DNA of 64,000 nt. It comes from Gemmatimonadota bacterium (lineage in GTDB: Bacteria > Gemmatimonadota > Gemmatimonadetes > Gemmatimonadales > GWC2-71-9). A program made the translations under genes and the position numbers. Numbering within the stretch: the first letter of the stretch is position 1; every line of letters starts with the position of its first letter. The notes under the pieces are model-generated. The model worked only from the letters and a program-made list of their open reading frames with translations. It did not search any database and was not told where the DNA came from. The stretch is from positions 35,910 to 99,909 of the forward strand of contig SHZT01000008.1 in assembly GCA_009692185.1 (NCBI GenBank), given 5' to 3'. Positions 39,106 through 56,300 of the stretch are shown here, in pieces.

Positions 39106-39300
39106 TCCTCCTGCCCGATCCCGAACGTGGCAGTGTTGAACGTCAGCGTGGTGCTCGTGACGCCCCGGAGCGCGGCTTCGCCACCCATGGCGGTCACTCC
39201 GCGGGCGACGATGTCCCGCGGGGCCTGGCCGGCTGCCGGGACGGTGGCGGAGGAAATGGCGATGGCGGCGATCCCGGGCACGATGAATTTCAGTCGCATT
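39106..39300 (-). pseudogene. N-terminal stub of a secreted protein gene (family not assignable)
   Basis: MRLKFIVPGIAAIAISSATVPAAGQAPRDIVARGVTAMGGEAALRGVTSTTLTFNTATFGIGQEE. Beyond that it reads antisense of the kinase stub. The ATG lies 1 nt after the DUF1326 stop. Confidence 0.5.
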
Positions 39301-39301
39301 G

Positions 39302-39916: not shown

Positions 39917-40539
39917 TACATCCCCTCCATCGTGTCGCCGACCGGAATGACGCCGAACCACACGCTCACGCCCAGCGCGATCAGGGTGATCCCGACTGGA
40001 ACCGCGAGCCGCTTGCCTCCGGGTGCCGTCTTCTCGGCCAGCACGACGAGGGCGACGGCGGCCATCCACCAGGGGTTCATCAGGCCCAGCGCGACGAGGG
40101 CCACCATGAGCCCGGCGCAGCATGCCACGCAAAACCACCCGTGGTGCATGCCCATGAAAAGAGCCCCAGCGGCCCCGGGGCGCCAGTGCCGAAGGAAGAA
40201 ATGCGTCGGCGTGCGGCAGTGATCGAGACAGGCGGCTTTCCAGCTGGTCAGCTGATAGATGCCTGCCAGGATGAGTGCGAACGTCGCGAGCGGGCGATGC
40301 CACGGCATCAGCGCCATTTCCGTTGACGCCCGCAGCGCGCCGACACCGAGGCCGAGAAGGCTCCAGGCCACGAAATAGCCGGCGATGAAGAGGACCGGTG
40401 CGACGTGACGCTTGACCCCGGGCGCATCCGATGCCGCAGCCCGGAAGAACAACACGGTTGGAAGAACTGACGGCGTCATCATTGCGATCATCATCACGGT
40501 CCATGTGCCGGTGAACGCCAGGAGATCGGCAAGCGTCAC
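39916..40539 (-). CDS. DUF2182-family (predicted metal-binding) integral membrane protein
   Basis: VTLADLLAFTGTWTVMMIAMMTPSVLP...CLDHCRTP...MGMHHGWFCVACCAGLM. The GTG start overlaps the MFS TGA stop (GTGA). Confidence 0.75.
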   Translation of the reverse strand: MTLADLLAFTGTWTVMMIAMMTPSVLPTVLFFRAAASDAPGVKRHVAPVLFIAGYFVAWSLLGLGVGALRASTEMALMPWHRPLATFALILAGIYQLTSWKAACLDHCRTPTHFFLRHWRPGAAGALFMGMHHGWFCVACCAGLMVALVALGLMNPWWMAAVALVVLAEKTAPGGKRLAVPVGITLIALGVSVWFGVIPVGDTMEGM

Positions 40540-41798: not shown

Positions 41799-42838
41799 TC
41801 AGCAACCAGTTCTCCGACCGCCGGGCCATGCTTGAAGCCATGACCGGACCCGCCGCCCACGAGCCACACGTTCGATGCCTTCGGATGGCGATCGATGATG
41901 AAGTGACTGTCGGGCGTTTGCTCGTATTGACAGGCTTTCCCGTCCAGGAATGGGGCCTTGGCCAGCGACGGCAATCGCTCGGCGAGCTTGGCGCGGGCCT
42001 CTGCGAGAACCGCAGGGGTCACGCCCCGGTCCCCGTTGTCCGGGTCGAACACGGGGCCGCGATCGTCAGAGGCCAGCTTGATCCCTTGTCCCCCTGACGG
42101 GATGGAGTACCAGATGCCCGGGCCACGATCGAGCCACACGGGGATCTGCCCGTCGCGGTATCCGTCCATCGACGGAAGGCCGAAGTAGAACAGTTCCTGC
42201 CGCGTCGGCCGGATCAAGTCACCGATGACATCGGGGAAGAGTTTCCCCATCCACGGTCCGCAAGCGTAGACGACGATGTCCGTATCCGGGGGTGTCCGGC
42301 CGTCGAATGCCTCCACCCGGCCTTCTCGGTACGTGCCGCCCTCGGCGAGAAACTGGCCGAGCACCAGGGCGCATGCTGCACGGGCCCGGAGGTACGCGGC
42401 CCCCGGTTCTTCAATGACGAAGTTGACGCCCGAGAAGTTGAACAAGGGGTAGCGCTTTTTCGCCTGGGTGGGCGAGAGCTGCTGATGCGGGACTCCCGCG
42501 TCCCGCAGGTGCCCCATGGCGTCCCGTTCCCACCGGTCGTCCCGGGCGGCGAGCCACAGAGCGCCCGTTTCCCGGAGCACCAACTGACCCGTGGCCTTCT
42601 GGAGCGCCCGCCACTGGGGGAAGGAGGCGAGCGTGAGGTCCACGTAGATCCGGTCCGGCCCGTAGGTGGCCCGGATGATCCGGGTATCGTCCCCCGAACT
42701 GGCCCTGGGGTTCGCCGGCCCCCACGCATCCCACAGGGTGACGTGCACTCCCCGGCGGAGGAGGTGGAGGGCGGTCCAGCCGCCGAAGGCTCCGGCGCCG
42801 ATTACGGTCGCCCGGGTGACGGATCGGGGTTGAGGCAT
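41735..42838 (-). CDS. FAD-dependent oxidoreductase (DAO / sarcosine-oxidase-like)
   Basis: ATVIGAGAFGGWTALHLLRRGVHVTLWDA (dinucleotide fold) ... WLVGGGSGHGFKHGPAVG. Confidence 0.8.
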   Translation of the reverse strand: MPQPRSVTRATVIGAGAFGGWTALHLLRRGVHVTLWDAWGPANPRASSGDDTRIIRATYGPDRIYVDLTLASFPQWRALQKATGQLVLRETGALWLAARDDRWERDAMGHLRDAGVPHQQLSPTQAKKRYPLFNFSGVNFVIEEPGAAYLRARAACALVLGQFLAEGGTYREGRVEAFDGRTPPDTDIVVYACGPWMGKLFPDVIGDLIRPTRQELFYFGLPSMDGYRDGQIPVWLDRGPGIWYSIPSGGQGIKLASDDRGPVFDPDNGDRGVTPAVLAEARAKLAERLPSLAKAPFLDGKACQYEQTPDSHFIIDRHPKASNVWLVGGGSGHGFKHGPAVGELVAECALERRKLEPTFLLKRFAKR

Positions 42839-42857: not shown

Positions 42858-42887
42858 TTGGGTTACCAGAATGTGACGCAGGTCGGC
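42858..42887 (+). repeat. conserved upstream element, copy A (TTGGGTTACCAGAATGTGACGCAGGTCGGC)
   Basis: Lies 20 nt from the FAD-oxidoreductase start and 128-157 nt upstream of SusC-1. Copies at 53680-53708 and 56345-56365. Confidence 0.8.
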
Positions 42888-42914
42888 CAGTTGGCCAAGG
42901 TGGCACCTGCGGTA

Positions 42915-42945
42915 TTGACCTGAGGCCTGTCGGAGTGCCTCTTTG
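42915..42945 (+). promoter_or_regulatory. candidate FCB-type promoter of SusC-1 (TTG - 20 nt - CCTCTTTG)
   Basis: TTGACC...CCTCTTTG. The same spacing and near-identical boxes occur upstream of SusC-2. It resembles the Bacteroides -33 TTG / -7 TAnnTTTG layout only partly. Confidence 0.3.
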
Positions 42946-43014
42946 AGGCGAGTGTGATCTTCGATTCCTGAGCGAGTCAGAACGATTTCCGAACCATTCG
43001 GCAGGGAGGTTCTT

Positions 43015-46000
43015 GTGAGATTCAGGTCTGGTCTTTTTGCGGCGGGCCTAGTCAGCCTGGGCGCGGCATCGGCCTCGGCACAGACGCGCGTCGTCACCGG
43101 CAAGGTGATTGACTCGCTGACCTCCGAAGTGGTCACGTCCGGGCAGGTGTCGGTCGTCGGGACGACGATCGGGACCACGATCAAGGAGGACGGAACGTTC
43201 ACCTTGGCTGCCCCGGCCCGGGATGTCTCCATCGCTGTCCGGAGCATCGGGTTCAAGCGGCGCGACGTGTCGGTGCCGGCGAGTCAGAGCGCGGTTCAGG
43301 TGAATCTCGAGCGCGACTACTTCCAGCTCGAAGCCATCGTCGTCACGGGCCAGGCCACGGGCGTCGAAAAGCGCAATCTCGCCAACGCGGTATCGACCGT
43401 AACCGGCGCGGAGGTGTCCAAGGTTTCCGCTCCGACGCTCGAGCAGGCGCTCTCCGGCAAGATGGCCGGCGTCCAGCTGTCCGAGAATTCCGGTGCGCCG
43501 GGCGGCGGCATGCGCGTGCGCCTGCGCGGCGCCACGTCGATCATCGGCGGCGGCAGTCCGCTCTACGTCGTGGACGGCGTCATTGCCAGCGACGCGCGCA
43601 TCGAGGGTGGGATGAACGCCGTGTCGCTGGCCCAGGGAGCCGGCATCACCAGCGTCGAGCAGATGAACCCGGTGAACCGGATCGCCGACTTGAACCCGAA
43701 CGACGTCGAGAGCGTGGAGGTCCTCAAAGGCGCCTCCGCCGCCGCGATCTACGGGTCCAAGGCCGCGAACGGCGTCATCCTCATCACCACCAAGCGCGGC
43801 CGCCTCGGTGCGCCGCGTTTCCAGATCCGGCAGGGCATTGGCACATCCATGCGGTCGTTCACATTCGGATCTCGCTACTTTTCAGATCTCGCCTCCGCCG
43901 TCCAGGCGTTCGGCGCCACGGCGGCGCAGCATTGGACGCCCGGCTACACGCCGTTCAACCTCGAAGACGACATCACGGGTTACAAGCCGCTGCAGTACGA
44001 GACGTCCGCCAACATGAGCGGCGGCACCGAGACGACGCAGTATTTCGCTTCGGCGCTGGTCCGGCACGAGGGTGGGGTGGCGCTCGAGACGTTTGCGGAC
44101 AAGGCTTCGGTCCGCCTCAATCTGGATCAGCAGGCCGGCCGGCTCAAGATTTCTGCGGGCACCGAAGTGATTCGCACGGCGAACGACCGCGGGATGTTCG
44201 GCAATGATAACGCCGGCACGAGCTACTACTTCGTCCTCCTGCACCATCCCAATTTCTTCGATCTCCGGGCGACCTGCCCCGATGGCTCCCGGCAGGCGAC
44301 GTGCAAGGGCGGCGTGTACCCGGTCAATCCGTACGTTACCAGCAACCCGCTGCAATCGGCGGTCCTCATGACCCGCGATGAGGTCGTGTGGCGCATGCTG
44401 AACAGCCTCCGGGGTGAGCTCGACGTGGTCTCCAGCACCCAGCACAAGCTCCGGCTGCTCACTACCGGCGGATTCGATCAGTTCATTCAGGAAGACAACA
44501 TCGTCTCGCCCCCCGAGTTGCAGTTTGAGCCCAACGACGGCTTGCCGGGAACCGTGGTGCGCTCCTTCGGGAACAGCTTCCAGGGGAACGTAAACGCGAA
44601 TCTGGTGCACACGTTCCGGTCGTCCGGGGGCTTCATTTCCGCGACTACCCAGTTCGGCACGCAGTACGAGTACCAGCGCCTGGTACTCGACCGCACCGCG
44701 AACAAGGGGCTGATCGCCGGGACGCCCACGGTCGCGTCGGGCACCCGCCAGACCATCGAGCAAGAGCTCACCCGGGTGAAGGACTTCGGATATTTCGCAC
44801 AGGAAGAGCTGTTCTTGTCGGAACGGTTGCTGCTGACCGGCGGCGTCCGCGCCGACCGCAGCAGCAACAACGCCGATACCAAGATGTTCTTCTACTATCC
44901 CAAGGCCTCCGCATCGTACCGCTTCTTGGCGGTTCCGGGACCGGTGGACGAACTGAAGCTGCGCGTGGCGTACGGCCAGACGGGCAACCGGCCGCTCTAC
45001 GGGCAGAAGTTCACCAATCTGAACGCCACGAATGTGGGCGGAATCGGCGGGGTGACGGTAGCCGCCGCTGCCGGGGCCGCCGATGCCCGACCCGAGCGGC
45101 AGACGGAGATCGAGGCGGGCTTCGATGCCCAGATGCTGGGTAACCGGGCCTTGCTCGAAGTCTCACTCTACCAGAAAACGAGCAACGACCTGTTGCTGCA
45201 ACGGACGCTGGCCCCGGTCACCGGCTTCTCATCCGAAATATTCAACGGGGCGGCAATGCGCGTCCGCGGACTGGAACTCGGGCTCAATCTGACGCCGGTG
45301 CGCAGCAGCAAGTGGACCTGGACGACGAACATGAACTGGGCAATGAACCGTAGCAAGATCACGAAGCTGCCGGTCCTGCCGTTCAACGCCGCGGGCGGCA
45401 CCAGCGGAGCGATCCGCATCGTGGAAGGCGGGTCCGCCACGGCCCTGTGGGCCAATGACACGCTGCCACGCGCCTCGTCGGCGGCCCCGTTCGTTCTTGA
45501 GTTCAAGTACCAGGGTGATGCGGCCCCGAGCTGGACCGGCGGCCTGGTGAACACCGTGCAGTTCCGGGCCGTCAGTCTCTCCGCCACCGTCGAAGCTGTG
45601 CGGGGAGGGTTGATGAACGCCGGCAGCTGGAGGCATTGGGACATCCAGCGGAACGGGTACGACTTCGAGGAGCCCGGCAATTGCGGCGGCACCCTGTCAC
45701 TGGGCGCGTGCCGGTTGAGCCTCCAGAACCAGGTCCCCATGAACTACTGGCGCAACGCGGGCTACGTGAAGTTGCGTGAATTGGCGCTGGGGGCGGACTT
45801 GCCCCAGTCCGTCACGAATCGTCTCTGGAGCGGAATGCGCCACGTCCGGGTGTCGGTCTCGGGCCGGAACCTCCTGCACCTCCAGAAGATCATTGGCGGT
45901 AACATGTTCCGCGGCACCGATCCGGCCGCGGCCAATTATCACAGCGGCAACCAGCGCTCGAACAATGTGGCGTACACCCGCGAATTCGCGGCGTACCCGT

Positions 46001-46041
46001 CCACCCGTTCGTTCTGGTTCTCGCTCGACATGGGATTCTGA
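43015..46041 (+). CDS. SusC/RagA-family TonB-dependent outer-membrane transporter (SusC-1)
   Basis: GTG start after GGGAGG. Signal peptide. CarboxypepD_reg-like TRVVTGKVIDSLTSEVVTSGQVSV. Plug FQLEAIVVTGQATGVEKRNLANAV...VEVLKGASAAAIYGSKAANGVILITTKRG. C-terminal ...SFWFSLDMGF. Confidence 0.9.
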   Translation: MRFRSGLFAAGLVSLGAASASAQTRVVTGKVIDSLTSEVVTSGQVSVVGTTIGTTIKEDGTFTLAAPARDVSIAVRSIGFKRRDVSVPASQSAVQVNLERDYFQLEAIVVTGQATGVEKRNLANAVSTVTGAEVSKVSAPTLEQALSGKMAGVQLSENSGAPGGGMRVRLRGATSIIGGGSPLYVVDGVIASDARIEGGMNAVSLAQGAGITSVEQMNPVNRIADLNPNDVESVEVLKGASAAAIYGSKAANGVILITTKRGRLGAPRFQIRQGIGTSMRSFTFGSRYFSDLASAVQAFGATAAQHWTPGYTPFNLEDDITGYKPLQYETSANMSGGTETTQYFASALVRHEGGVALETFADKASVRLNLDQQAGRLKISAGTEVIRTANDRGMFGNDNAGTSYYFVLLHHPNFFDLRATCPDGSRQATCKGGVYPVNPYVTSNPLQSAVLMTRDEVVWRMLNSLRGELDVVSSTQHKLRLLTTGGFDQFIQEDNIVSPPELQFEPNDGLPGTVVRSFGNSFQGNVNANLVHTFRSSGGFISATTQFGTQYEYQRLVLDRTANKGLIAGTPTVASGTRQTIEQELTRVKDFGYFAQEELFLSERLLLTGGVRADRSSNNADTKMFFYYPKASASYRFLAVPGPVDELKLRVAYGQTGNRPLYGQKFTNLNATNVGGIGGVTVAAAAGAADARPERQTEIEAGFDAQMLGNRALLEVSLYQKTSNDLLLQRTLAPVTGFSSEIFNGAAMRVRGLELGLNLTPVRSSKWTWTTNMNWAMNRSKITKLPVLPFNAAGGTSGAIRIVEGGSATALWANDTLPRASSAAPFVLEFKYQGDAAPSWTGGLVNTVQFRAVSLSATVEAVRGGLMNAGSWRHWDIQRNGYDFEEPGNCGGTLSLGACRLSLQNQVPMNYWRNAGYVKLRELALGADLPQSVTNRLWSGMRHVRVSVSGRNLLHLQKIIGGNMFRGTDPAAANYHSGNQRSNNVAYTREFAAYPSTRSFWFSLDMGF

Positions 46042-46043
46042 CC

Positions 46044-47444
46044 ATGACAACCAAACTGATTTCGGCCGTCGTACTGGCCGCCGCCCTCGCCGCGTCGACT
46101 GGCTGCGGCGATTTCGAGATTCCGAATGCCGACAACCCCAACCTGAACGCGCTGGAGGACAACCCGTCTCCCTCGGTGCTCATCAGTGCCACTCAGGGAC
46201 TGTTGCAGGGCATCCGCACTGGCACGACGACCAACCTGAGTACCTTCGCCCACTATGGCCGCGAGGGCTACTACATCGATGTCGCCCAGACCACGCTCTC
46301 GGCCTTCGACGTCGTGCTGACGCCGGGCACCGGTGGCGGGGGCGGGTGGAACAACACCTACCAGTATGTCCGGCTGGGCAACACCATTCTCACCGGCCTC
46401 GACAAGGTGGGGTCGGCCATGACAGACCAGCAGAAAGAGGGGATCCGGGGATTCGTCAAGACCGCGGGGGCGTACCTGCTGCATGGCCAGCTCCGTGCCA
46501 TGGACGCATTTGGCGTCGTCATCGCGACCGACAACATCAGTTCGACCCAGCTCCCGGCAGTCGCTTCAAAAACGGCGGCCTTTGCGTTCATCAACCAGCG
46601 GCTGGACGAAGGCCGCGTACACCTGCTGGCCGCGGGCGCGGCGTTCGCGTTCAGCCTGGGCACCGGGTTCGCGGGTTTCAGCACTCCCGCGACGTTCATA
46701 CAGGTCAACCGCGCGCTTCGCTCGCGGGTCGCGATCGAAGCGAACGACTACGCCGGGGCGGTAGCCGCCCTCGGGGCTTCGTTCGTGAACCCCGCGTCCG
46801 CCATGGACCTGGGACCCAAGAACATCTACTCCACGGCCACGGGTGATGCGGTCAACGGGTTTTTTGATCCGAACGGGTTTTCCTACGTGGCCGACTCCAT
46901 GTTGCCGGTCGAGGCGCAGCTCCGGCTCGGTGCCACCAAGGACTTGCGCGTCACCAGCAAGATGACACGCATCCTCGGACCGGGCGGAGTGTTCCAGACC
47001 CGAAAACACACCGGCGTGGAATCGGGCTTTCGCTGGACCCTCTACAGCACCTCCAGCTCGCCGATTCCGATCATCAAGAACGAGGAGTTGCTCCTGATCC
47101 GGGCGGAGGCCCGCTGGCGCACCGGCGATCAGCCCGGCGCCCTGGCGGACATCAATGCGGTCCGCACGGTCTCCGGCGGCCTCCCAGCCCTCGGGGCGAT
47201 AGCGAGTGATGCCGCCTTCGACAACGAACTACTCTACAACCGGCGGTACTCCCTGTTGCTCGAGTACGGGCACCGGTGGGTGGACCTCCGCCGGTTCAAC
47301 CGGCTGACCGATCTGAAGGGCCCCCGCGGCGCGGGCGACCTGGTGTTCGACAAGGTCCCGCTGCCTCAGTCCGAGTGTGATCAGCGCCCCGATCCCAAGC
47401 CGACCGGATGCAGCCAGGTGAGCGGCTTCCGGACCACGTCGTAA
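46044..47444 (+). CDS. SusD/RagB-family lipoprotein (SusD-1)
   Basis: Starts 2 nt after SusC-1. Lipobox LAASTGC. ...IIKNEELLLIRAEARWRTGDQPGALADINAVR...YSLLLEYGHRWVDLRR. Confidence 0.85.
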   Translation: MTTKLISAVVLAAALAASTGCGDFEIPNADNPNLNALEDNPSPSVLISATQGLLQGIRTGTTTNLSTFAHYGREGYYIDVAQTTLSAFDVVLTPGTGGGGGWNNTYQYVRLGNTILTGLDKVGSAMTDQQKEGIRGFVKTAGAYLLHGQLRAMDAFGVVIATDNISSTQLPAVASKTAAFAFINQRLDEGRVHLLAAGAAFAFSLGTGFAGFSTPATFIQVNRALRSRVAIEANDYAGAVAALGASFVNPASAMDLGPKNIYSTATGDAVNGFFDPNGFSYVADSMLPVEAQLRLGATKDLRVTSKMTRILGPGGVFQTRKHTGVESGFRWTLYSTSSSPIPIIKNEELLLIRAEARWRTGDQPGALADINAVRTVSGGLPALGAIASDAAFDNELLYNRRYSLLLEYGHRWVDLRRFNRLTDLKGPRGAGDLVFDKVPLPQSECDQRPDPKPTGCSQVSGFRTTS

Positions 47445-47463
47445 GCTCCTCGAGGAGGGTTTG

Positions 47464-48834
47464 ATGAAGTCCAGATCGCTGGTCGCAGCAATCGCATTGG
47501 CCGGCGCCGCTGCCGGGCCCGCGCTCGCGCAGCGCGGCGGCGAGCATCCGGCACCCGGCATGGCCGGCAGCCGGAACATGAAGGTCTTGGCACATATACC
47601 GCTCGGCGGGCCATTCTACGCCAACGACATCAAGGTGGAGCAGGAGCTGTCACGCCCCTACGCCTACGTGTCAGGGCGCTCGCACTTCGGCTACTACATC
47701 ATCGACCTCAAGGATCCCGGCAAGGCCCGGCTGCTCTATAGCTGGAGGATCGAGAACCCCGAGCTGCACCGTGGGCGCGCCCTGAGCGCGATGCACCTCA
47801 AGACCAACGGCAGATACTATCTCACGCAGTCATTCCAGTTCCAGGCGGGCGGCCCGGACAACGATCTCGGCGCAGTCATCTTCGACGTGACCAGACTTCC
47901 GGATACGACGACGATTCGTGAGGTCGCGCGCATCCGGGTGCCGGACGCTCCCGGAGGATTCCACGAAACCTATGCCTACAAACACTCCGATGGCCGCGCC
48001 CTTCTCTTTACGACCTCAAGCCAGGCCTTTGCCCGGGTCTACGACATCGCCAAGACGGTCACCGGCGACAAGGAGTTCGGCCTGATCGGGAAGGTTCCGA
48101 ACCCGACGTCGCAGGCCGCCGGGACTGACCGCGGGTATCACGACTTTTACGTGGGCTACGACCCGGCTACCAAGCAGGACCGGTTCTTCGGGGCGGGCGG
48201 CGGTGGTTTCTACGTCTACGACGTCACCAACATCGCCGAGCCGAAGCTGGTGGCTTCCGCCACCGGCATCTCGGGCATGCAAAACGGCCACACGTTCACA
48301 CCGACACCCGACGGCCGCTACGCGGTGCTGGAGTCGGAGTACCAGTACGCCCCTCTCCGCATCATCGATCTCAAGCCCGCGTACGACGGAACCGTGACGA
48401 CCGTTTCTCGACCAATTGGCGCGTGGACCCAACGCTGGCAAGGCCTGCCCCATAACCATGAAGTGCGCTGGCCGTATGTCTTTGTCACGACGTATGAGGA
48501 CGGGGTCCAGGTTTTTAACATGATGGATCCAACGAATCCATACACCGTCGCTTCGTACGACACCTACGACGGGCCGGTCATGATGAACAAGAGCAAGCCC
48601 TTCGATCCACCTACGCCGGGCGAGGGTGACGTCACCATCGGCAGCTTCGGCATCGATGTCCGGAACGCGGACGGCCTGATCGTATCCGCGGATCTGAACA
48701 CCGGATTCTGGGTCTTCAAGATGGAAGGCTTTGACGGCTGGAACGGCCGTCAGTGGGGCATGCCCAACCAGTCCAGCGCCCAAGACTGGGATAACGGGCC
48801 GGACGGCGCCCCGAAGCCCCAAAAGGTCAGTTAG
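47464..48834 (+). CDS. secreted LVIVD-repeat beta-propeller protein, paralogue 3
   Basis: MKSRSLVAAIALAGAAAGPALAQ. Motifs: EQELSRPYAYV, ENPELHRG, FQAGGPDNDLGA, DVTRLPDT, YKHSDGRALLF, HTFTPTPDGRYA, VRWPYVFV, YEDGVQVFNMMDPTNP, GIDVRNADGLIVSAD, EGFDGWNGRQWGMPNQSSAQDWDNGP. Confidence 0.9.
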   Translation: MKSRSLVAAIALAGAAAGPALAQRGGEHPAPGMAGSRNMKVLAHIPLGGPFYANDIKVEQELSRPYAYVSGRSHFGYYIIDLKDPGKARLLYSWRIENPELHRGRALSAMHLKTNGRYYLTQSFQFQAGGPDNDLGAVIFDVTRLPDTTTIREVARIRVPDAPGGFHETYAYKHSDGRALLFTTSSQAFARVYDIAKTVTGDKEFGLIGKVPNPTSQAAGTDRGYHDFYVGYDPATKQDRFFGAGGGGFYVYDVTNIAEPKLVASATGISGMQNGHTFTPTPDGRYAVLESEYQYAPLRIIDLKPAYDGTVTTVSRPIGAWTQRWQGLPHNHEVRWPYVFVTTYEDGVQVFNMMDPTNPYTVASYDTYDGPVMMNKSKPFDPPTPGEGDVTIGSFGIDVRNADGLIVSADLNTGFWVFKMEGFDGWNGRQWGMPNQSSAQDWDNGPDGAPKPQKVS

Positions 48835-48847
48835 AGAGGGGCTTTCG

Positions 48848-50218
48848 ATGACGCATAAAACCGCGGGCGCCACGCTGGTCCTGCTCCTGGCCGGAGTTGG
48901 GCCGGCGTCCGCGCAATATCGTGCGGGCCAGAACGCCAGTCCCAACGTCAAGCTGGTCTCCCATCTCCCGCTCGCGGGTCCGCGCAACGGCACCGAGATC
49001 CAGATCGCCGATATCGAGATCGAGCAGGAACTGTCCCGGCCCTATGCGTATGTGTCGCGCGGGCGTCGTCCGGACGGATTCAACATCATCGATCTGCGGG
49101 AACCGAGTCGGGCGCGGCTGCTCTATTCCTGGTTCATCGAGAATCCCGAGCTTCACCAGGGCCGGGGCGTTAATGGAAAGTATTTCAAGCTCAACCGCCG
49201 CTATTACTACGTGCAGGCATTTCAATTCCGGGGCGCCGGTCCGGACAACGACCTCTCGGCGGTTGTCGTCGATGTCACCAGCCTTCCCGATACGACTCGG
49301 GTAAGGGAAGCCGGCAGGATTCGCGTTCCGGAGGCCCGGGGGGGAGCACACAATCTCTTCACCTACAAGCACTCCGATGGACGGGTACTCCTGTTCCTGA
49401 CGGTCACCGCGCCCGCCGGATACCCATATGGTGCCCTCGTCTACGACATGGAGAAATTCCTGGCCGGCGCGCCGGACAACGGGTTAATCGGAGGGATCCC
49501 GCTCCCGGAGCCGCGCGGCGCGGCGAATGGCTATCACGACGTGTACGTGGCCTACGATGTGGCCAGCCACCGCGACCTGTTCTACGCCGGTGGGCCGGAG
49601 ACGACACCGCTCGGCGGAAATTACGTCTACGACATTTCCGACGTGAGGGCTCCCAAGCTGGTCGCGACCGTCATCGCGCAGGCGTCCATGCAGTCGGGAG
49701 GTCACACCTTCGTCGCGACCCCCGATGGCCGCTATGCCCTCACGCTCATGACCTCGCTGGGCCATCAGCCGGTGCGGTTCTTTGACCTGAAGCCCGCGCT
49801 GGACGGTACGGTGCCGGTGATTCGGCAGCCGATCGCCGAGTGGACACCCGATGCGAAGAAGTCCGGTCACATGATCGAAATCCGGTGGCCGTACGTGTTC
49901 CTCGCCATGTACGAGGATGGCCTCCACGTGCTCGACATGCGGAATCCCACCGATCCGGCCCACGTCGGTTTCTACGACACCTTCAATTACAAGACGCCCT
50001 ACGGGGTCGGGACCGAAGCGCAGGGCGGCTACGGTGTGGACGTGCGAAATGCGGATGGCCTGATCGTGATGGCGGACATGCACAGCGGATTCTGGGCCTT
50101 CCGGCTCGACGGGTTCACCGGCTGGAACGGGCACGACTGGGGCATGCCCAACGTGTCCAGCGCTCAGGACTGGGACAACGGCCCCGAGGGAGTCCCCAAG
50201 ACCGGCAAGACGAGCTGA
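48848..50218 (+). CDS. secreted LVIVD-repeat beta-propeller protein, paralogue 4
   Basis: MTHKTAGATLVLLLAGVGPASAQ. Same block order as paralogue 3 (EQELSRPYAYV, ENPELHQG, GAGPDNDLSA, YKHSDGRVLLF, HTFVATPDGRYA, IRWPYVFL, YEDGLHVLDMRNPTDP, DVRNADGLIVMAD, DGFTGWNGHDWGMPNVSSAQDWDNGP). Confidence 0.9.
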   Translation: MTHKTAGATLVLLLAGVGPASAQYRAGQNASPNVKLVSHLPLAGPRNGTEIQIADIEIEQELSRPYAYVSRGRRPDGFNIIDLREPSRARLLYSWFIENPELHQGRGVNGKYFKLNRRYYYVQAFQFRGAGPDNDLSAVVVDVTSLPDTTRVREAGRIRVPEARGGAHNLFTYKHSDGRVLLFLTVTAPAGYPYGALVYDMEKFLAGAPDNGLIGGIPLPEPRGAANGYHDVYVAYDVASHRDLFYAGGPETTPLGGNYVYDISDVRAPKLVATVIAQASMQSGGHTFVATPDGRYALTLMTSLGHQPVRFFDLKPALDGTVPVIRQPIAEWTPDAKKSGHMIEIRWPYVFLAMYEDGLHVLDMRNPTDPAHVGFYDTFNYKTPYGVGTEAQGGYGVDVRNADGLIVMADMHSGFWAFRLDGFTGWNGHDWGMPNVSSAQDWDNGPEGVPKTGKTS

Positions 50219-50219
50219 A

Positions 50220-52199
50220 CTACCTTCCGCTGAGCGACGCCGCGCCACCTGGCGTCACCACCTTGTCGTTCAGGTGCTGGTTGAAGAAGTCGAGCATGTC
50301 GAGCAGCATTTGCCTCGTGTTGGCCACGCTCGTGACGTAAAAGTTTTCGTTGGGGTACGCCTTGTAGCGAACCACCTTGTACAGGCGCTCCATCTCCTTG
50401 GCGAACTGAAGCATCTGCGGCGATTCGGGGAAGTGCCCCTCGCCCCACACCAGGAACGTCGGCGTCTGAATGTCCTTGATCCAGTAGAACGGGGAGTTCC
50501 GACGATATACGTCCTCGTTTTGCTCGAACGGACCGAATTCATAGGCAAGTTGTTGAATGTGGCGGTATTCGCCTTCTTTCATGAACCCGACGCGATCGGG
50601 GTATGCTGAGGCGGGGATCGCCGCCTGAAACACGCCCGGTGCCCAGGTGATGGCCGACGTGCTCATGTGTCCACCGTAACTGGAGCCGGCGATGCCCATC
50701 TTTGCCGCATTGACATAGGGCAGCTTCTTCAGATAATCCACCCCTGCCACCACGTCCCGCAGATCGCAGTGTCCCCAACAACCGTTGTTGGCCATCTCGA
50801 ACGCGCGGCCATACCCGGAACTTCCCCGCACGTTGGGCAGCAGCACCACGTACCCTTGCCTGGCGAAAAACTGCGCCTGTTGTTGATAGGTGTCGCTGAA
50901 CTGCGCGGTGGGCCCTCCGTGTGCCAGGACGATGGCCGGGAACCTGTCGGTGGGACCGATCACGGGTGGCTTGTAGAGGTAGGCATTGATCGTGAGCGTG
51001 TCGCTCCGGTACGCGGTTTTTTCCGGAACGACGAGCTGCTGCTCGATATTTCCGCCGGGGGCCGAGTAGGTGAGCTGACGGGCCTGGCCGCCCTCCACCG
51101 GCACGATGTAGAGGTCGGCGGACCGGGTCGGCGTCGCCATGGTGTAGCTCAGGCGCCTGCCGTCGGGTGACCAGGCCGGATTCGCGATGACGCCCGTTCC
51201 CGGAGGCGCGGCCGCCACCCGGCTGACGCCACCGGCAGCGGACACCATTCGCAGGTCGTGTGTCCCATTCCGGTTCGAGACATAGGCGATCTGTTTGCCG
51301 TCGGGGGACCAGCGGGCCTCGCTCTGCTCGGCCGGCTCCGGCGCGATCGGTCGGGGGCTGCCACCGGCCAGGGGCACAGCCCAGTAGTTGATCCAGCCGC
51401 TCCGTTGCGAGCGGAAGAGCACGGTTTGGCCGTCGGGTGATATCAGGGGATACCCGAACGTGCTTCCTTCGCCGTAATCGAAGAAGTCACTGTCCTTGGT
51501 GATCAGGCGCGGTGCCGCACCCGGGGCCGCCAGGTCCAGCTCCAGGACCTCATGCTCCATCCAGCGGTCGTCCAGGCGGACATAGACCAGCATCCGCCCG
51601 TCCGGGGTCCACGCGGGGTACGCCTCGAGCCGGGTATCCGTGGTGAGGCGATGGACCTCCCCGGTCGGCACCGCCACCTTCCAGAGATCGAAATTGCCGT
51701 GGCGGTTCCCTCCGAGCGCGATCCACTTTCCGTCCGGCGACCACGCATATGAGTTCACCCGTTGGCCACCGAGGGAGGTCAGCTGGAGTTGGCGTCCGTC
51801 GCGCGCGGACCAGAGCCAGATTTCCGGCGAGCCGCTCTTGTCGGAGACGAAGGAGATCCATGCGCCGTCGGGCGACCAGGTGTGCATCTGCGGCGCGGGA
51901 AGGAAGAGGCCTCCGGTTCCGAGGTCGGCGGCGAAGCGGGTGGGGAATCCCCCTTCCGGGCTCACCCCCCAGATGCTGGTGCCACCGCCACCCAGGCTCG
52001 ACAGGAACGTGATCCGGGTGCCGCCGGGCGCCCACTGCGGGGTCTCGCTGACCAGCGATCGCACCGCGAGCACCCGCTCGACCCACGCGCGCGGCGCCCA
52101 ACCCTCGCCTGGTGCCCCGGGGGGACGCATCCCGGCGGGCGTCTGGGCCGCAAGCGGAGAGGTAACCAGCGCAATCAGCAGCAGAACGGGGCGGCGCAT
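50220..52199 (-). CDS. secreted S9-family serine peptidase (prolyl oligopeptidase/DPP type) with TolB-like beta-propeller
   Basis: Signal peptide MRRPVLLLIALVTSPLAAQ. Repeated WSPDG propeller blades. Catalytic domain GIAGSSYGGHM (GxSxGG nucleophile). Confidence 0.9.
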   Translation of the reverse strand: MRRPVLLLIALVTSPLAAQTPAGMRPPGAPGEGWAPRAWVERVLAVRSLVSETPQWAPGGTRITFLSSLGGGGTSIWGVSPEGGFPTRFAADLGTGGLFLPAPQMHTWSPDGAWISFVSDKSGSPEIWLWSARDGRQLQLTSLGGQRVNSYAWSPDGKWIALGGNRHGNFDLWKVAVPTGEVHRLTTDTRLEAYPAWTPDGRMLVYVRLDDRWMEHEVLELDLAAPGAAPRLITKDSDFFDYGEGSTFGYPLISPDGQTVLFRSQRSGWINYWAVPLAGGSPRPIAPEPAEQSEARWSPDGKQIAYVSNRNGTHDLRMVSAAGGVSRVAAAPPGTGVIANPAWSPDGRRLSYTMATPTRSADLYIVPVEGGQARQLTYSAPGGNIEQQLVVPEKTAYRSDTLTINAYLYKPPVIGPTDRFPAIVLAHGGPTAQFSDTYQQQAQFFARQGYVVLLPNVRGSSGYGRAFEMANNGCWGHCDLRDVVAGVDYLKKLPYVNAAKMGIAGSSYGGHMSTSAITWAPGVFQAAIPASAYPDRVGFMKEGEYRHIQQLAYEFGPFEQNEDVYRRNSPFYWIKDIQTPTFLVWGEGHFPESPQMLQFAKEMERLYKVVRYKAYPNENFYVTSVANTRQMLLDMLDFFNQHLNDKVVTPGGAASLSGR

Positions 52200-52245
52200 G
52201 GGGGATCCTTCCAGATAGAGTTCCGGTTGATACGATCCGAGCCGC

Positions 52246-53644
52246 CTACCGAAGACTCACTTTGCGCGGCGTCGGAGCCCCCTCGGGGCCATTGTCCCAG
52301 TCCTGGACGCTGGAGATGTTGGGCATGCCCCAACGGTGACCGGTCCAGCCATCAAACCCTTCCATCTTCAGCGCCCAGAACCCCGAATCGTAGTCGCTGA
52401 TGACAATCAACCCGTCGGCGTTGCGCACGTCGATGCCCCAGGCTCCCTCGTACATGCTGTTGCTTCTGCCGCCCGCACGCTGTTCGGCGAAGCCCGCGAT
52501 TCCCGAACCGTGGAGGTAGGGGCCTGGTCGAGTCACGTAGAAGCCCACGGTATAGGGGTTCGTGGGGTCCATGATGTTGAATACCTGGAATGCATCGCTT
52601 TGTCCCGAGACGAAGACATAGGGCCACCGAACCTCGAAGTTGTGCACCGCCCCCTGCCACGAGGGAGTCCAGGCGCCTATCGGGCGGGAGACCGTCTTCA
52701 CCTGCCCGTCCAATGCGGGCTTCAGGTCGAAGACCCTGGCCACGCCGTACTGATACGTGGGCAACGGCATGGTAATCGCGTACCGGCCGTCGGGGGTCGG
52801 CGTGAACGTATGGGCGTCCGGTTGGCCCGCCACGCCAGTGATCGAAGCGATGACCCTGGGTTCGGCGGGATTGGTGATGTCGTACACGAAGGCTCCGCCG
52901 CCGCCGGCCGCATAGAGCTTGTCCTGTTTGGTCGCCGGATCGTAGCCCGCGTAGAAGTCGTGCCACGCACTCCCGGGGCCGGGCTTTGCGGAATTCGGAT
53001 TCACCGCCTTCCCGATCACCGGGTTGAGGTCACCGGTCACGACCTTCTCCATGTCGTAAATGTAGGCCTCCGGAGAGACGGTTTGGGCAATCACCAGCGC
53101 CCGCCCGTCTGAGTGCTTGTACGAGAAGGTCTCGTGGAAGCCGCCGGGATGTTCCGGCACGACGATACGGCGGATCTCCTTGACCTTGGACGTATCGGGG
53201 AGGCCGGTGACGTCCCAGACGATCGCGCCCAGGTCGACGTCCGGGCCGCCGGCCTGGAACTGGAAGCCGTTGAGGAAGTAGTAACGGCCCTTGTGCTTCA
53301 CATAGGTCGGCGCGAGAGAACCGTTGCCTCGATGAAGCTCCGGGTTCTCGATGCGCCAGGAGTAGATGACATGCGGCCTGGTCGGGTCCTTGATGCTGAC
53401 GATGTCGAAACCCGCGAGGCCCTTGGTGCGATCGACATAGACGTACGGACGCGACAGTTCCTGCTCCATCTCGATATCCGACACGTTATATGGGCCGAGG
53501 GCGCTTAGCGGGAGATGCGACACGACGCGGATATTGCGGCTCCCTTGTGCCCCCGGGGCCGGATTTGGATTGTACTGCTGTGCGGTGAGCAGACCGCCGA
53601 GCCCCGGCGCAGCGGCCAGGACCAGCATGACGTTCCTCAGCATT
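52246..53644 (-). CDS. secreted LVIVD-repeat beta-propeller protein, paralogue 5
   Basis: ATG 53644 follows GGGAGGAAAGA. MLRNVMLVLAAAPGLGGLLTAQ. Motifs: EQELSRPYVYV, ENPELHRG, FQAGGPDVDLGA, DVTGLPDT, YKHSDGRALV, HTFTPTPDGRYA, VRWPYVFV, GIDVRNADGLIVISD, EGFDGWTGHRWGMPNISSVQDWDNGP. The track ORF to 53913 fuses it in-frame to a gene remnant. Confidence 0.9.
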
Positions 53645-53679
53645 CTTTCCTCCCGGATAGGGGTTAAAGATCGCGGCCT

Positions 53680-53708
53680 TGGGTTACAGAATGTGACGCC
53701 GGTCGGCG
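53680..53708 (+). repeat. conserved upstream element, copy B (TTGGGTTACAGAATGTGACGCCGGTCGGC)
   Basis: Lies 36-64 nt from the LVIVD-5 start codon and directly abuts the truncated end of the FAD-oxidoreductase remnant. Confidence 0.8.
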
Positions 53709-53711
53709 TGT

Positions 53712-53850
53712 CGGGCCCTCGGGTTTGCCGGCCCCCCGCGTCCCACAGGGTGACATCTACCCCCTGCCGGAGGAGGTGCAAGGCGGTCCAGCCGCCGAAG
53801 GCGCCGGCCCCCACGACAAGCGCACTGGTTCCGGCGTTCTTACGTCGCAT
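53712..53850 (-). pseudogene. 5' remnant (about 45 codons) of a paralogue of the FAD-dependent oxidoreductase at 41735-42838
   Basis: MRRKNAGTSALVVGAGAFGGWTALHLLRQGVDVTLWDA versus MPQPRSVTRATVIGAGAFGGWTALHLLRRGVHVTLWDA. DNA homology continues a few codons with an indel and then stops. Confidence 0.75.
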
Positions 53851-53880
53851 TGGGCCAAGTGGCCTTGAAAGTACGCTTCT

Positions 53881-53891
53881 AATGTGACGCC
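53881..53891 (+). repeat. AATGTGACGCC box, second copy flanking the remnant
   Basis: Exact 11-nt direct repeat of 53691-53701. It sits 31 nt upstream of the remnant start codon. The intact gene has AATGTGACGC 32 nt upstream of its start (42870-42879). Confidence 0.75.
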
Positions 53892-53984
53892 ACGCATCGC
53901 CATGGCCAAGCACGATGGGGCGGGGATGTCACGGGGAGCTTAACACCTTGCCCCGGACCGTTTCCTCTTCGATTCTTTGGGCCT

Positions 53985-56300
53985 ATGACCCGGACCTATC
54001 TTCGGTTCCTCCTCCTGACGTTCGCCGGCAGCGCCATGCTCCCGTCCGTGATCACGCTAGGGTCTCTGCTCCATGGTCCGCAGAGCCGAGCGTGGACCCA
54101 TACGGTGGTATCCGTCGCGGTGGCCGCCGGGTTCGTGTTCCTGTTCTGGCGCCTGTTTCGGTGGTTGGAGCCGGCGCTCGACGCGGACGCGCAGGCGCAG
54201 GTGGCTACCCTCGATACCCTCTCGGAGCGGTGGGCTGGCGTTGCGATCGCCTTGGCCGCGGGCGCCAGTCTGGTACTCGAGCTGGCCGTGATCCGCTGGC
54301 AGGGGACGGTGTTCGAGTTCTTCGCGTTCTACAAGAATTTCGGGCTGTTGACGGCTTTCGCTGGTCTGGGGCTGGGCTACGCGCTCGCGGACCGCGACCG
54401 CATCCCGCTCATGCTGGTGATTCCCCTCCTGGCCGGACAGTTCGGGCTGCTGATCGCGTTGCGTTATGGGCTTGAGCCGTGGCAGCTCCAGAGCGTGATG
54501 GCGCAGCCGGTCGCAGAGCAGCTCGCGATGGGCGTGGATCGGGCGCGAGGCACGGCGCAGGGGTTGACGATCCACTTCTTCCTGCTGGTCGTGTTCTTCC
54601 TCACCGCGCTGGCGTTCGTGCCGGTGGGACAGGCCTGTGGCCGCCTGATGGCGCGCCGCCCGCAACTGCGGGCGTACGGACTCAACTTGCTGGGCAGCGT
54701 AGCCGGCGTGCTGCTGATGTTCGTGGCGAGCGCGCTGTGGACACCTCCCCTGGTCTGGTTCGGACTCGGGTTCATCGCGCTCCTGGTGCTGTCGGTGCCG
54801 AGGCGGCGAACGCTGCTCGCGGGATTCGCCGCGGCCACAGTCGCGTTCGCCGCGCTCGCGTGGCCGGTGAACCCCAACTGGTCGAAGATCTACAGCCCCT
54901 ACCAGCTGCTCGAGCTGGGTTACTCCGAGCGAGGGCTGATGATGATTCGGGCGGCCGGCCACTACTACCAGCACGTGTACCAGCTGGGTGACCCCGGGGC
55001 GGCCGCCGACCCCCAACTCAAGGCGGTCCGCGACTACTACGACTTCCCCTATCGCGTATCGCGGGCGCCCGCGGACGTCCTGGTCGTGGGCGCCGGTACC
55101 GGGAACGACGTGGCCGCCGCGCTGCGGGGCGGCGCCCTCCGCGTGGATGCGGTGGAGATCGATCCGGCCATCCTGGCCGCCGGTCGCCTGGGGCATCCGG
55201 AGCGCCCCTACCTGGACCCCAGGGTCCGGACCATCGTCGACGACGCGCGCTCATTCCTGCGGACGACGCCGCGACGGTACGACATGATCGTCTACGGGCT
55301 GCTCGATTCGCACACCCTTTTGTCCCATGCCTCGAGCGTGCGCCTCGACAGCTTCGTGTACACGGTCGAGGGTTTTCGCGAGGCGCGCGAGCGGCTCAAG
55401 CCCGGCGGGGTGCTCGTCCTGTCGTTCTCAATGCTGAATGCGGCGATTGGACGGAAGATGTACGAGATGCTGCGGGCGGCCTTCGACGGGGCGGCGCCCG
55501 TCGCGTTGCGCGCGGGATACGACGGTGCAGTGGTATACCTGCAGTACCGGGACGGCGGCACCACCCTGCCCCCGGACCTGCTGGCCGCCACCCAGTTCCA
55601 CGACGAAGGTCCCCTGTACAGTAACCCCACGTTCCGTGTCGATCTTTCGACCGACGACTGGCCGTTCTTCTACATGCCGCGGCGAGTGTATCCGCAGTCG
55701 TACCTCGTGGTGCTGGGGCTGGTGCTGGCGGGCACGCTGGCGCTCACCGGCGGTTTCATCCGTTCACGCCCCAGCCTGGCAGAGGCCCCGTACTTCCTGC
55801 TGGGCGCGGGTTTCATGCTGATCGAGACCAAGGCCATAACGGAAATGGGGCTGACGTTCGGTAACACGTGGCAGGTGATCGGGATCGTGATCGCCTGCAT
55901 CCTCGGCATGGCGTTCCTGGCGAACGCGGCCGTGGCGCGGTTCGGGTGGCGCCGGCCGCTATTTGCGTACCTGCTGCTCATCGGGAGCCTGACCCTGAGC
56001 TGGTTCGTCATGGGCGCCGGCGGGCTCTCCTCGACGGCCGCGGGGCGTGCCGGCACGGCCATCCTGCTCACCGGGCCGATCTTCTTCTCCGGCGTTGTCT
56101 TCTCGACGCTGCTCGCGGCGCGGCGGACGCCGGTGGCGCCCGCGATGGCAGCCAACCTGCTCGGCGCGATGTGCGGTGGCCTGCTCGAGTACAACTCGAT
56201 GTACTTCGGCTTTCGCTGGCTCCACCTGCTGGCGATGGCATTCTACGCCGTGGCGTTCCTGACCGCCATCCGGGGAATGACGCGTCCGCGCACCGCCTAG
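53985..56300 (+). CDS. polytopic membrane protein with embedded spermidine-synthase-like (class I MTase fold) domain
   Basis: About 7 N-terminal and 5 C-terminal TM helices flank YQHVYQLG...VLVVGAGTGNDVAAALRGGALRVDAVEIDPAIL...YDMIVYGLLDSH. Confidence 0.75.
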   Translation: MTRTYLRFLLLTFAGSAMLPSVITLGSLLHGPQSRAWTHTVVSVAVAAGFVFLFWRLFRWLEPALDADAQAQVATLDTLSERWAGVAIALAAGASLVLELAVIRWQGTVFEFFAFYKNFGLLTAFAGLGLGYALADRDRIPLMLVIPLLAGQFGLLIALRYGLEPWQLQSVMAQPVAEQLAMGVDRARGTAQGLTIHFFLLVVFFLTALAFVPVGQACGRLMARRPQLRAYGLNLLGSVAGVLLMFVASALWTPPLVWFGLGFIALLVLSVPRRRTLLAGFAAATVAFAALAWPVNPNWSKIYSPYQLLELGYSERGLMMIRAAGHYYQHVYQLGDPGAAADPQLKAVRDYYDFPYRVSRAPADVLVVGAGTGNDVAAALRGGALRVDAVEIDPAILAAGRLGHPERPYLDPRVRTIVDDARSFLRTTPRRYDMIVYGLLDSHTLLSHASSVRLDSFVYTVEGFREARERLKPGGVLVLSFSMLNAAIGRKMYEMLRAAFDGAAPVALRAGYDGAVVYLQYRDGGTTLPPDLLAATQFHDEGPLYSNPTFRVDLSTDDWPFFYMPRRVYPQSYLVVLGLVLAGTLALTGGFIRSRPSLAEAPYFLLGAGFMLIETKAITEMGLTFGNTWQVIGIVIACILGMAFLANAAVARFGWRRPLFAYLLLIGSLTLSWFVMGAGGLSSTAAGRAGTAILLTGPIFFSGVVFSTLLAARRTPVAPAMAANLLGAMCGGLLEYNSMYFGFRWLHLLAMAFYAVAFLTAIRGMTRPRTA

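Follow-up and report, generated by a model that had tools for sequence, protein, structure and literature searches.

A SusCD gene cluster without glycan enzymes in a Gemmatimonadota bacterium, linked to a large family of exported beta-propellers: a candidate non-glycan uptake system

SusCD transporters, pairs of a TonB-dependent SusC barrel and a SusD lipoprotein lid, are read almost without exception as importers of glycans, an assumption on which the prediction of polysaccharide utilization loci (PULs) is built. A canonical PUL of Bacteroidota has a tandem of susC and susD in one operon with downstream genes of exported proteins, occurs in many paralogous versions per genome, and is defined also by its carbohydrate-active enzymes (CAZymes) and a dedicated regulator. 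The RagAB system of Porphyromonas gingivalis is of the SusCD type as well and imports oligopeptides (bioRxiv 10.1101/755678). Two described groups of propeller proteins are relevant here, namely the canonical LVIVD proteins, which are giant cell-surface repeat proteins (PMC2447325), and the phosphotriesterase Sb-PTE, or haloalkylphosphorus hydrolase, of Sphingobium sp. TCM1 (PDB 5hrm, 5ioj), a seven-bladed propeller for which the structure work is that of Mabanglo et al. 2016, as cited in PMC11656708. The DNA described here is a stretch of 64,000 nucleotides from a Gemmatimonadota bacterium (assembly GCA_009692185.1, contig SHZT01000008.1, positions 35,910 to 99,909), in the following termed the window, and its subject is a cluster at 43-64 kb in which SusCD genes stand next to genes of exported propellers, here termed LV proteins. 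The cluster can be read as a non-glycan SusCD system for nutrient uptake, probably of peptide-like organic nitrogen, with the LV propellers as periplasmic metalloenzymes, a reading to which we would give a probability of roughly 45%. No paper was found in the literature on the LV family, on LVIVD proteins together with SusCD or multicopper oxidases, or on SusCD-peptidase loci in Gemmatimonadota.

The core of the cluster begins with SusC1 (43015-46041, plus strand), a SusC/RagA-type TonB-dependent transporter with CarboxypepD_reg, Plug and barrel parts, followed after 2 nt by SusD1 (46044-47444, plus), a SusD/RagB-like lipoprotein lid, after 19 nt to its ATG by LV3 (47464-48834, plus), an exported seven-bladed beta-propeller, and after a further 13 nt by the paralogue LV4 (48848-50218, plus; 50% identity to LV3 by tblastn). 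On the minus strand, converging with LV4 and with 1 nt between the stop codons, lies the gene of an exported S9-like protein (50220-52199) that combines a PD40/TolB-like propeller with an S9 alpha/beta-hydrolase domain of degenerate catalytic triad, and 46 nt upstream of it lies LV5 (52246-53643, minus; 56-57% identity to LV3). The spacing of SusC1, SusD1, LV3 and LV4 is tight enough for one operon, and so is that of LV5 and the S9-like gene. Further downstream are SusC2 (56581-59634, plus), the SusD-like lipoprotein SusD2 that follows it after 1 nt (59636-61171, plus), and SusC3 (61405-64000, plus), which runs past the window end and has 1030 aa in full. The map is based on the list of open reading frames (ORFs) and their translations, and the same proteins are given by the public gene call for this contig, which was made independently. 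An initial annotation of the same DNA had given this gene order with the same gaps and the convergence, had placed a second SusCD pair and a third SusC at 56.6-64 kb, and agrees with the map within 1 nt; its LV5 end at 53644 lies one nucleotide too far and so outside the reading frame, 53643 being correct. The GC content is 62-68% across the entire window, and the relatives of the window genes are from metagenome-assembled genomes (MAGs) of Gemmatimonadota.

SusC1 scores 429.5 bits and SusC2 414.8 bits against TIGR04056 (cut-off 368.25), both carry the TIGR04057 signature (63 and 61 bits, respectively; cut-off 46.2), and SusC1 is 48-49% identical to SusC2 and SusC3. SusD1 matches PF07980 with 33.8 bits (cut-off 23.1) and SusD2, 35% identical to SusD1, with 14.7 bits only, which is under the cut-off; the lipoboxes are ASTGC (STGC) in SusD1 and LAGAC in SusD2. 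Like a canonical PUL, the cluster has its SusC and SusD genes in tandem with downstream genes of exported proteins, but it fails two defining features of PULs, the CAZymes and the dedicated regulator. Among the 48 window proteins scanned against Pfam there is no glycoside hydrolase or lyase, and none is encoded in the 10 kb past the window, for which the gene calls and precomputed Pfam lists of the parent contig were used; also neither a hybrid two-component system (HTCS) nor an extracytoplasmic function (ECF) sigma/anti-sigma pair is found among the scanned window proteins or in these 10 kb, and no SusR is adjacent. The initial annotation had described the locus as devoid of CAZymes and PUL regulators, which holds for the window and for this continuation beyond 64 kb. 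It had also pointed out that the SusC proteins have no recognisable STN domain; indeed there is no match in SusC1 and SusC2 by the Pfam scan, and the precomputed Pfam list of SusC3 contains CarbopepD_reg_2 and Plug only, its signal peptide leading straight into a sequence that resembles the start of the CarboxypepD_reg match in SusC1 and SusC2. Since STN is expected only in SusC proteins that are coupled to ECF/anti-sigma regulators, its lack is uninformative. A further difference to PULs is that the accessory proteins are not lipoproteins. By its barrel and lid, the lack of CAZymes, and a proteolytic and amino-acid context, the cluster would resemble RagAB-type peptide import more than a PUL, although it comes from Gemmatimonadota, has three paralogous SusCD pairs, is coupled to LV proteins, a multicopper oxidase and a triad-less S9-like protein, and peptide import is in this case suggested by gene context alone. 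In two metagenome loci of the same SusD clade (L103, L117), a second SusC is preceded by ECF-sigma-like and anti-sigma-like genes, recognised by sequence motif only, together with an S51 peptidase; if these motif calls are correct, canonical trans-envelope signalling is present in those organisms and absent from the window cluster.

What the LV proteins are associated with can be seen from other genomes. A scan of one genome per species gave at least 546 LV relatives, and gene neighbourhoods were taken from the best 76 loci, which belong to Gemmatimonadales, Longimicrobiales, and a few Rhodothermales and Acidobacteriota MAGs. Tandem arrays are frequent and comprise up to eight genes, and the numbers per genome are high, with at least 64 distinct copies in one chromosome of 3.86 Mb (OZ252244.1), where genes of about 1.4 kb each make up about 2% of the genome, and at least 34 in another MAG. 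LV arrays directly touch SusC or SusD in 12 of 118 cases (35 of 178 genes), in six public genomes and this window. When the genes within 10 kb of LV arrays that are not adjacent to them are taken as baseline, SusCD units occupy 10 of 189 adjacent versus 4 of 590 non-adjacent positions (odds ratio 8, Fisher p 2e-4), and multicopper oxidases (MCOs) are found directly beside the arrays in 21 of 189 versus 9 of 590 positions (about 8-fold, p 8e-8), both statistics being drawn from non-independent samples, as the loci come largely from two genomes. The co-occurrence of the propellers with susCD, which the initial annotation had described for this locus, recurs in these arrays and is enriched about 8-fold at direct adjacency, but most LV copies are elsewhere: the SusCD-LV link is real, but it is a minority arrangement. 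The best cross-genome match of LV4 (72% identity) is in a SusC-adjacent array (L080), and that of LV5 (72% identity) is directly beside SusD (L039).

When all neighbours of LV genes in 77 loci were clustered, the most frequent was a three-domain MCO (29 of 77 loci), followed by a DUF5916/CBM9 protein (18), an exported amidohydrolase (13), SusC (12), a protein of about 200 aa that we term u200 (11), SusD (8) and an S9 group (6). The LV propellers are thus not mainly SusCD modules, and their commonest partner is the MCO, usually in the adjacent and co-directional layouts LV-u200-MCO or MCO-LV. In the window, the MCO gene lies 11 kb upstream of the cluster (30160-32295, plus) and encodes three Cu-oxidase Pfam domains; its product clusters with the LV-linked MCOs, and u200 proteins match the window at 30244-30702 with E-values down to 1e-17, so that the u200 domain, a separate gene in other genomes, is here fused to the N-terminus of the MCO. 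It is followed by the gene of an exported amidohydrolase (32311-33729, plus), Xaa-Pro-dipeptidase-like at a sub-threshold level, whose cluster is a recurrent neighbour of LV and MCO genes. Elsewhere the same parts form single operons: a co-directional SusC-SusD-LV-(u200)-MCO-LV operon is found in four loci (L050, L059, L105, L145), and in a fifth (L150) the order is SusC and SusD, two S9-like genes with others in between, u200, MCO and LV, where each of the called S9-like, u200, MCO and LV genes either shares 4 nt with its neighbour or is 1 nt away from it. The window is therefore taken to hold a dispersed version of one recurring system, with u200-MCO and amidohydrolase at 30-34 kb, and SusCD, LV and S9-like genes at 43-54 kb.

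The same numbers have another, unlikely but serious explanation, namely that the adjacency of SusCD and LV has no functional meaning, that LV proteins are partners of MCOs in a copper-related or oxidative chemistry of the envelope, and that they came to lie next to SusCD by chance as both families expanded. The mere number of LV copies in one genome would allow for this, together with the small share of arrays that touch SusCD, and the best cross-genome matches speak the same language, as those of MCO-linked LV proteins are again MCO-linked in 30 of 36 cases, indicating a coherent orthologue group, whereas those of SusCD-linked LV proteins are SusCD-linked in only 11 of 37, and the best match of LV3 is not SusCD-linked at all. 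The region has probably also been rearranged, as a gene relic at the LV5 boundary (see below) indicates. Against this explanation stand the 8-fold enrichment at direct adjacency, the gaps of only 13-19 nt in the window, the co-directional operons of SusCD with LV-u200-MCO that recur in at least five independent loci, and the orthologues that LV4 and LV5 have beside SusCD in other genomes. A SusCD-specific subfamily of LV proteins was considered as well and rejected, because the best cross-genome matches of SusCD-linked LV proteins are mostly not SusCD-linked.

The LV proteins themselves are not easily assigned to a known family. The window encodes five of them, LV1 (13580-15019, minus; 55% identity to LV3) being outside the SusCD cluster, and LV2 (about 20382-21746, plus, the start being approximate) ending 53 nt before the gene of an exported DUF5916/CBM9 protein of 892 aa (21800-24478, plus). 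The initial annotation had termed them LVIVD propellers. In PF08309 (LVIVD), LV4 reaches 16.2 bits, below the cut-off of 20.2, and LV3 and LV5 give no match even at E-values up to 10, and in TIGR04312 (choice-of-anchor B) the LV proteins score 22.7-33.7 bits where 100 are required; the label is therefore unsupported at curated thresholds. Homology to true LVIVD proteins is nevertheless seen with a profile of the LV family, which matches, for example, P0156 with its 26 LVIVD repeats (Pfam 1080 bits) at an E-value of 4e-80, GLIV(S/M/I)xD motifs are visible in the LV sequences, and a propeller fold is predicted by modelling. Unlike the canonical LVIVD and TIGR04312 proteins, the LV proteins consist of a single compact propeller with invariant His and Asp residues, and by sequence they form a compact single-propeller branch of the LVIVD superfamily that is unnamed and below the threshold of every curated family. 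The branch is large: when 1.84 billion representative proteins were searched with the LV profile, about 300 clusters matched at E<1e-30, a number that rose to about 3000 at E<1e-10, and all close homologues are annotated as "hypothetical protein".

An AlphaFold2 model of LV3 (pLDDT 88, pTM 0.87) has 28 strands in seven four-stranded blades and is closed by the N-terminal strand. Foldseek matches of this model are generic WD40 propellers and, as the sole non-WD40 entry among the top matches, Sb-PTE (5hrm; rank 9, 16% identity, probability 1.0, TM 0.60), which is also the only specific PDB match of the LV profile (E 3.6e-4, or 1.7e-5 with a more diverse profile); a PDB search with the single LV3 sequence gave noise only, and Foldseek against viral structures gave only generic propellers. 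The active site of Sb-PTE is reportedly a binuclear metal centre within the propeller. In comparison to Sb-PTE, the similarity is confined to short stretches that resemble blade repeats, the LV proteins are about 100 residues shorter, and they have a conserved C-terminal tail rich in W, D and N and an invariant His/Asp set of their own. That LVIVD is no known glycosidase fold, as the initial annotation had presumed, agrees with these searches, since the only relative of solved structure is a phosphotriesterase and no glycosidase is among the top 50 Foldseek matches of the LV model. The C-terminal tail, GFDGWNGxxWGMPNxSSAQDWDNGPDG (LV3 about 421-456; window 48724-48831), is strongly conserved and non-regular, being modelled in LV3 with pLDDT values of 82-86 and no secondary structure; it might close the propeller as a plug, mediate oligomerisation or act as a sorting signal.

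More can be said on the likely site of action. The signal peptides of LV proteins are of the signal peptidase I (SPase-I) type and end with A-x-A|Q (ALA|Q in LV3), and no genuine lipobox is present in any LV protein, as the apparent matches come before the A|Q site and within the hydrophobic core. Because of this signal type and the missing lipobox, the LV proteins are likely located in the periplasm, or secreted, rather than anchored by a lipid at the surface. Across 161 full-length LV proteins, which come from about 35 genomes, conservation is 98-100% for H44, H167, H174, H226, D227, D239, H276, H330, R400 and D403 and 91% for H102, and it is equal for copies beside SusCD, beside MCO genes, or elsewhere. 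Read against the predicted strands, H102, H167, H226, H276 and H330 are found where the innermost strand begins in blades 2-6, so that these histidines may form a ring where the central channel opens at the top, which is the usual place of the active site in propeller enzymes. The loops of the top face (D-A, B-C) are variable and rich in indels (mean 2.0 bits), and those of the bottom face are conserved (1.1 bits), a pattern as it would be expected for a fixed catalytic core with diversified substrate-binding loops. With the SPase-I signal, the missing lipobox and the invariant His/Asp set, a function as periplasmic enzymes fits better than one as surface binding lids.

The initial annotation had regarded the LVIVD propellers as the binding or processing module of the SusCD system, and it is the binding half of this proposal that suffers most. 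In that version, LV proteins would be non-catalytic modules that capture the substrate at the surface together with SusCD, comparable to surface glycan-binding proteins or to BtuG, a propeller lipoprotein that works as a lid with the TonB-dependent transporter BtuB. Propellers are common binding scaffolds indeed, and LV3 and LV4 directly follow SusD, but BtuG-like lids are surface lipoproteins with a lipobox cysteine, which the SPase-I-type LV proteins do not have, six histidines and several aspartates are invariant in every context, including the approximately 90% of arrays that are far from SusCD, and the nearest characterised relative is an enzyme. A mere surface capture is thus improbable, and the processing half of the proposal, in the form of an exported enzyme-like role, is what fits better.

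About as improbable is a system for copper, iron or manganese, in which SusCD would import a metal chelate, the His-rich propellers would bind or store the metal, and the MCO would oxidise Cu(I), Fe(II) or Mn(II). It would do justice to the tight LV-MCO linkage, to the resemblance of the MCOs to CopA/CueO, which is at sub-threshold level, to the BlaI/CopY-family repressor that is encoded upstream of the window's MCO (29657-30058, plus), and to the seven conserved histidines of the LV proteins. A metal chaperone, though, would not be expected to come in tens of paralogues per genome that vary in their top loops, the genes that recur in the neighbourhood are those of peptidases and amino-acid enzymes, no element or riboswitch that responds to metal was found, and SusD lids normally handle organic ligands. 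As to regulatory elements, the promoter and terminator scan of 41.5-57 kb gave counts at or below the shuffled expectation, and Rfam has no riboswitch or leader near any SusC in the whole window, the sole match being a SAM-II element at 16.7 kb.

The S9-like protein is the next candidate for a function in processing. The initial annotation had called it an S9 serine peptidase with a TolB-like propeller, and the domains are there (PF00326 with 124 bits, PD40 (PF07676) with 120.5 bits, a partial TolB match), but in an alignment with 8wt1 and 5yzm the catalytic His is replaced by Phe (YPNENFYV) and the Asp by Gly or His (WGEGHFPES), only the Ser elbow GSSYGG being intact. This loss of the triad is common to all 10 members of the orthologue group, nine of which, the window's included, are beside SusCD or LV; the group has the motif E-[NT]-[YF]-Y, with Tyr or Phe in place of the His, and no conserved acid, and the less closely related S9 genes of these loci retain HGxxD and EGHG. 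Orthologues with 50-55% identity stand directly after SusD in four of 80 metagenome loci that were collected by their SusD relatives (36-49% identity; L099, L129, L130, L150), and in a wider set (also L013, L024, L049) they are found right after SusD or beside LV, sometimes as tandem duplicates. The eukaryotic DPP6 and DPP10 are non-enzymatic S9 homologues. Like these, the S9-like protein has the S9 alpha/beta-hydrolase fold, a propeller and an incomplete triad, which suggests a binding or auxiliary role, but it differs in that DPP6 and DPP10 lost the Ser, whereas it keeps the Ser and lost His and Asp, and in that it is bacterial, exported and linked to SusCD. A substrate-binding or otherwise non-canonical role is therefore deemed more likely than ordinary serine proteolysis, and the statement of the initial annotation that the only recognisable enzyme of the locus is a peptidase is weakened by the broken triad.

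That peptides might nevertheless be the substrate, as it had suggested, is indicated by the other neighbours. Past the window end follow, in this order, SusC3, SusD3, a second flavin oxidase gene of the DAO type (DAO2, minus strand), LV6 (466 aa, 57% identity to LV3), and the genes of an M20 and an M1 peptidase, both on the minus strand. At other LV arrays, the neighbours include M48, S41, S15 and M24 peptidases, gamma-glutamyltranspeptidase, ornithine cyclodeaminase, sarcosine-oxidase-type enzymes, amino-acid permeases, aminotransferases and a protein of the serine beta-lactamase fold, and other loci with SusD relatives have an S51 peptidase, a serpin or an amino-acid permease. Their common theme seems to be peptide and amino-acid metabolism, with a recurrence of families of proline specificity (S9, S15, M24, the prolidase-like amidohydrolase). 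The capture of peptides or proteins by SusCD is thus in agreement with neighbours that are peptidases and amino-acid enzymes, but it has lost the S9-like protein as an argument. That the cluster is a PUL for glycans or glycoproteins with LV as an unrecognised glycoside hydrolase or lyase fold is the least probable of the alternatives, for although several glycoside hydrolase families are beta-propellers, some relatives in the SusD clade adjoin a GH29 fucosidase, and a CBM9/DUF5916 protein is encoded directly after LV2, there is no CAZyme in the window, its continuation or the scanned neighbours at LV loci, the conserved site is dominated by His and is no carboxylate pair, no glycosidase appears among the Foldseek matches mentioned above, and the neighbours are enzymes of amino acids and peptides.

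For a non-glycan SusCD system with periplasmic LV metalloenzymes, the following course can be envisaged. SusCD would import a non-carbohydrate substrate with the energy provided by TonB, and the best guess for this substrate are peptides or peptide-like, amino-acid-derived organic matter, because of the M1, M20, S15, M24 and S51 peptidases, the prolidase-like amidohydrolase, the amino-acid permeases and the sarcosine-oxidase-type flavoenzymes in the neighbourhoods. In the periplasm, the LV propellers would act as metal-dependent enzymes, in which the ring of histidines at the top of the central channel would be the active site, and their variable top loops would give the paralogues different specificities. 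The MCO may oxidise the substrate or a product, the S9-like protein most likely would bind the substrate rather than cleave it, and peptidases and cytoplasmic DAO enzymes would finish the breakdown. In view of the link to the MCO, a substrate that is phenolic or cross-linked, or else a metal, would be conceivable as well. A more far-reaching and more doubtful idea is that SusCD, LV, u200 and MCO, with or without the S9-like protein and the prolidase-like amidohydrolase, are a previously unrecognised conserved envelope system of Gemmatimonadota, some Rhodothermales and Acidobacteriota, which would take up organic matter that is recalcitrant and other than carbohydrate, and would hydrolyse and oxidise it. 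LV would then be a new class of His-ring propeller metalloenzymes with dozens of specificities per genome, akin to the sulfatases and glycoside hydrolases in other phyla, and candidate substrates would be proline-rich peptides that are cross-linked or bound to phenols, and nitrogen that is humic or associated with lignin.

Several observations weigh against a SusCD peptide-uptake system with LV enzymes, beside the non-independence of the loci in the enrichment statistics. In the arrays analysed, 106 of 118 are not beside SusCD, and neither are the closest homologues of LV3. In the reverse approach with the 80 SusD-relative loci, an LV gene is downstream in only five, three of them with an MCO (L105, L145, L150), and a GH29 fucosidase is present at four, which is why the SusD clade is not uniformly non-glycan. 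The sole peptidase-family protein of the core has neither the catalytic His nor the Asp, and the assumption of a peptide substrate is based on neighbours, for most of which the assignments are family-level or sub-threshold. As to the LV enzymes, the histidine ring is deduced from positions along the sequence, and the profile alignments of LV with Sb-PTE (5hrm) are short, limited to blade-repeat segments, out of register and ambiguous as to the blade; they were not used for mapping of residues, as they can slip by one blade and every blade has the same motif.

What is new in any case is that a SusCD clade outside Bacteroidota is repeatedly found in CAZyme-free operons with an uncharacterised propeller family and an MCO, and the main interest is in this LV-MCO-SusCD system rather than in a "peptidase". 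If the proposed function is true, SusCD biology would gain an enzyme family and a class of substrates that are both new, and this would help to explain the nutrition of the abundant but poorly understood Gemmatimonadota of soil and groundwater. For annotation, caution is advised with the label "S9 peptidase", which in the orthologue group of the S9-like protein hides a broken triad, and likewise with the label "LVIVD".

Some features at the borders of the cluster remain to be described. Divergent from SusC1 is the gene of a cytoplasmic flavin adenine dinucleotide (FAD) oxidase of the sarcosine / N-methyltryptophan oxidase type (DAO; 41735-42838, minus), which matches PF01266 with 165.6 bits and NF008425 with 194 bits, the latter under the cut-off of 257. 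It belongs to an apparent minus-strand operon (38100-42838) for this sarcosine-oxidase-like DAO, an MFS transporter, PpoB2 (PF09948) and a DUF1326 protein, and a pair of DAO (minus) and LV (plus) genes is found also just past the window end. Upstream of LV5 there is a frameshifted relic (53707-53829, minus) that resembles the 5' end of the DAO gene (42683-42817, minus), with an identity of 69% in amino acids and, over about 115 nt, of about 85% in nucleotides, and that makes the LV5 ORF appear 90 codons too long (52246-53913). It indicates a rearrangement or a lost DAO paralogue at the LV5 boundary. An insertion of the block at 43-53.6 kb between two copies of the DAO 5' end was considered and dropped, as the repeat comprises only these about 115 nt of the conserved region of the FAD-binding motif. 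Between LV5 and SusC2 lies the gene of a polytopic membrane protein with a spermidine-synthase-like methyltransferase domain (53985-56300, plus), whose membership in the system is uncertain.

Of the genes further away, a second MCO gene in a different arrangement is located at 1071-2942 (minus). The DUF5916/CBM9 protein is encoded within 10 kb of LV in the 18 loci counted above, typically two to three genes upstream of LV-u200-MCO in Longimicrobiales (L076-L079, L004, L007 and others), and direct adjacency to LV is not enriched (3 of 189 versus 15 of 590 positions); it may be an alternative outer-membrane partner of LV. LV1 is preceded by a SAM-II riboswitch (SAM_alpha, RF00521; 16745-16818, minus; 41.3 bits, gathering score 36), which lies just upstream of the minus-strand genes of a pyridoxal phosphate (PLP)-dependent enzyme (15384-16757), of a 91-aa protein (15112-15387) that is ThiS/MoaD-like by the look of its sequence alone, and of LV1. 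Since the ORF as listed for the PLP enzyme reaches into the riboswitch, its true start codon is probably a later one. LV1 may share a transcript with this operon of sulfur amino-acid metabolism that is regulated by S-adenosylmethionine, and LV-PALP adjacency is seen also in L004 and L005. Finally, A-x-A|Q ends of signal peptides, with a Gln after the SPase-I site, are found in nearly all exported proteins of the window, namely in SusC1-3, LV1-5, the S9-like protein, the DUF5916 protein (21800-24478), the amidohydrolase (32311-33729) and the products of the ORFs at 9488-10624 and 33780-34319. Such a "Q-rule", which leads to N-terminal pyroglutamate, is known from Bacteroidota, and it seems to extend to this Gemmatimonadota genome.

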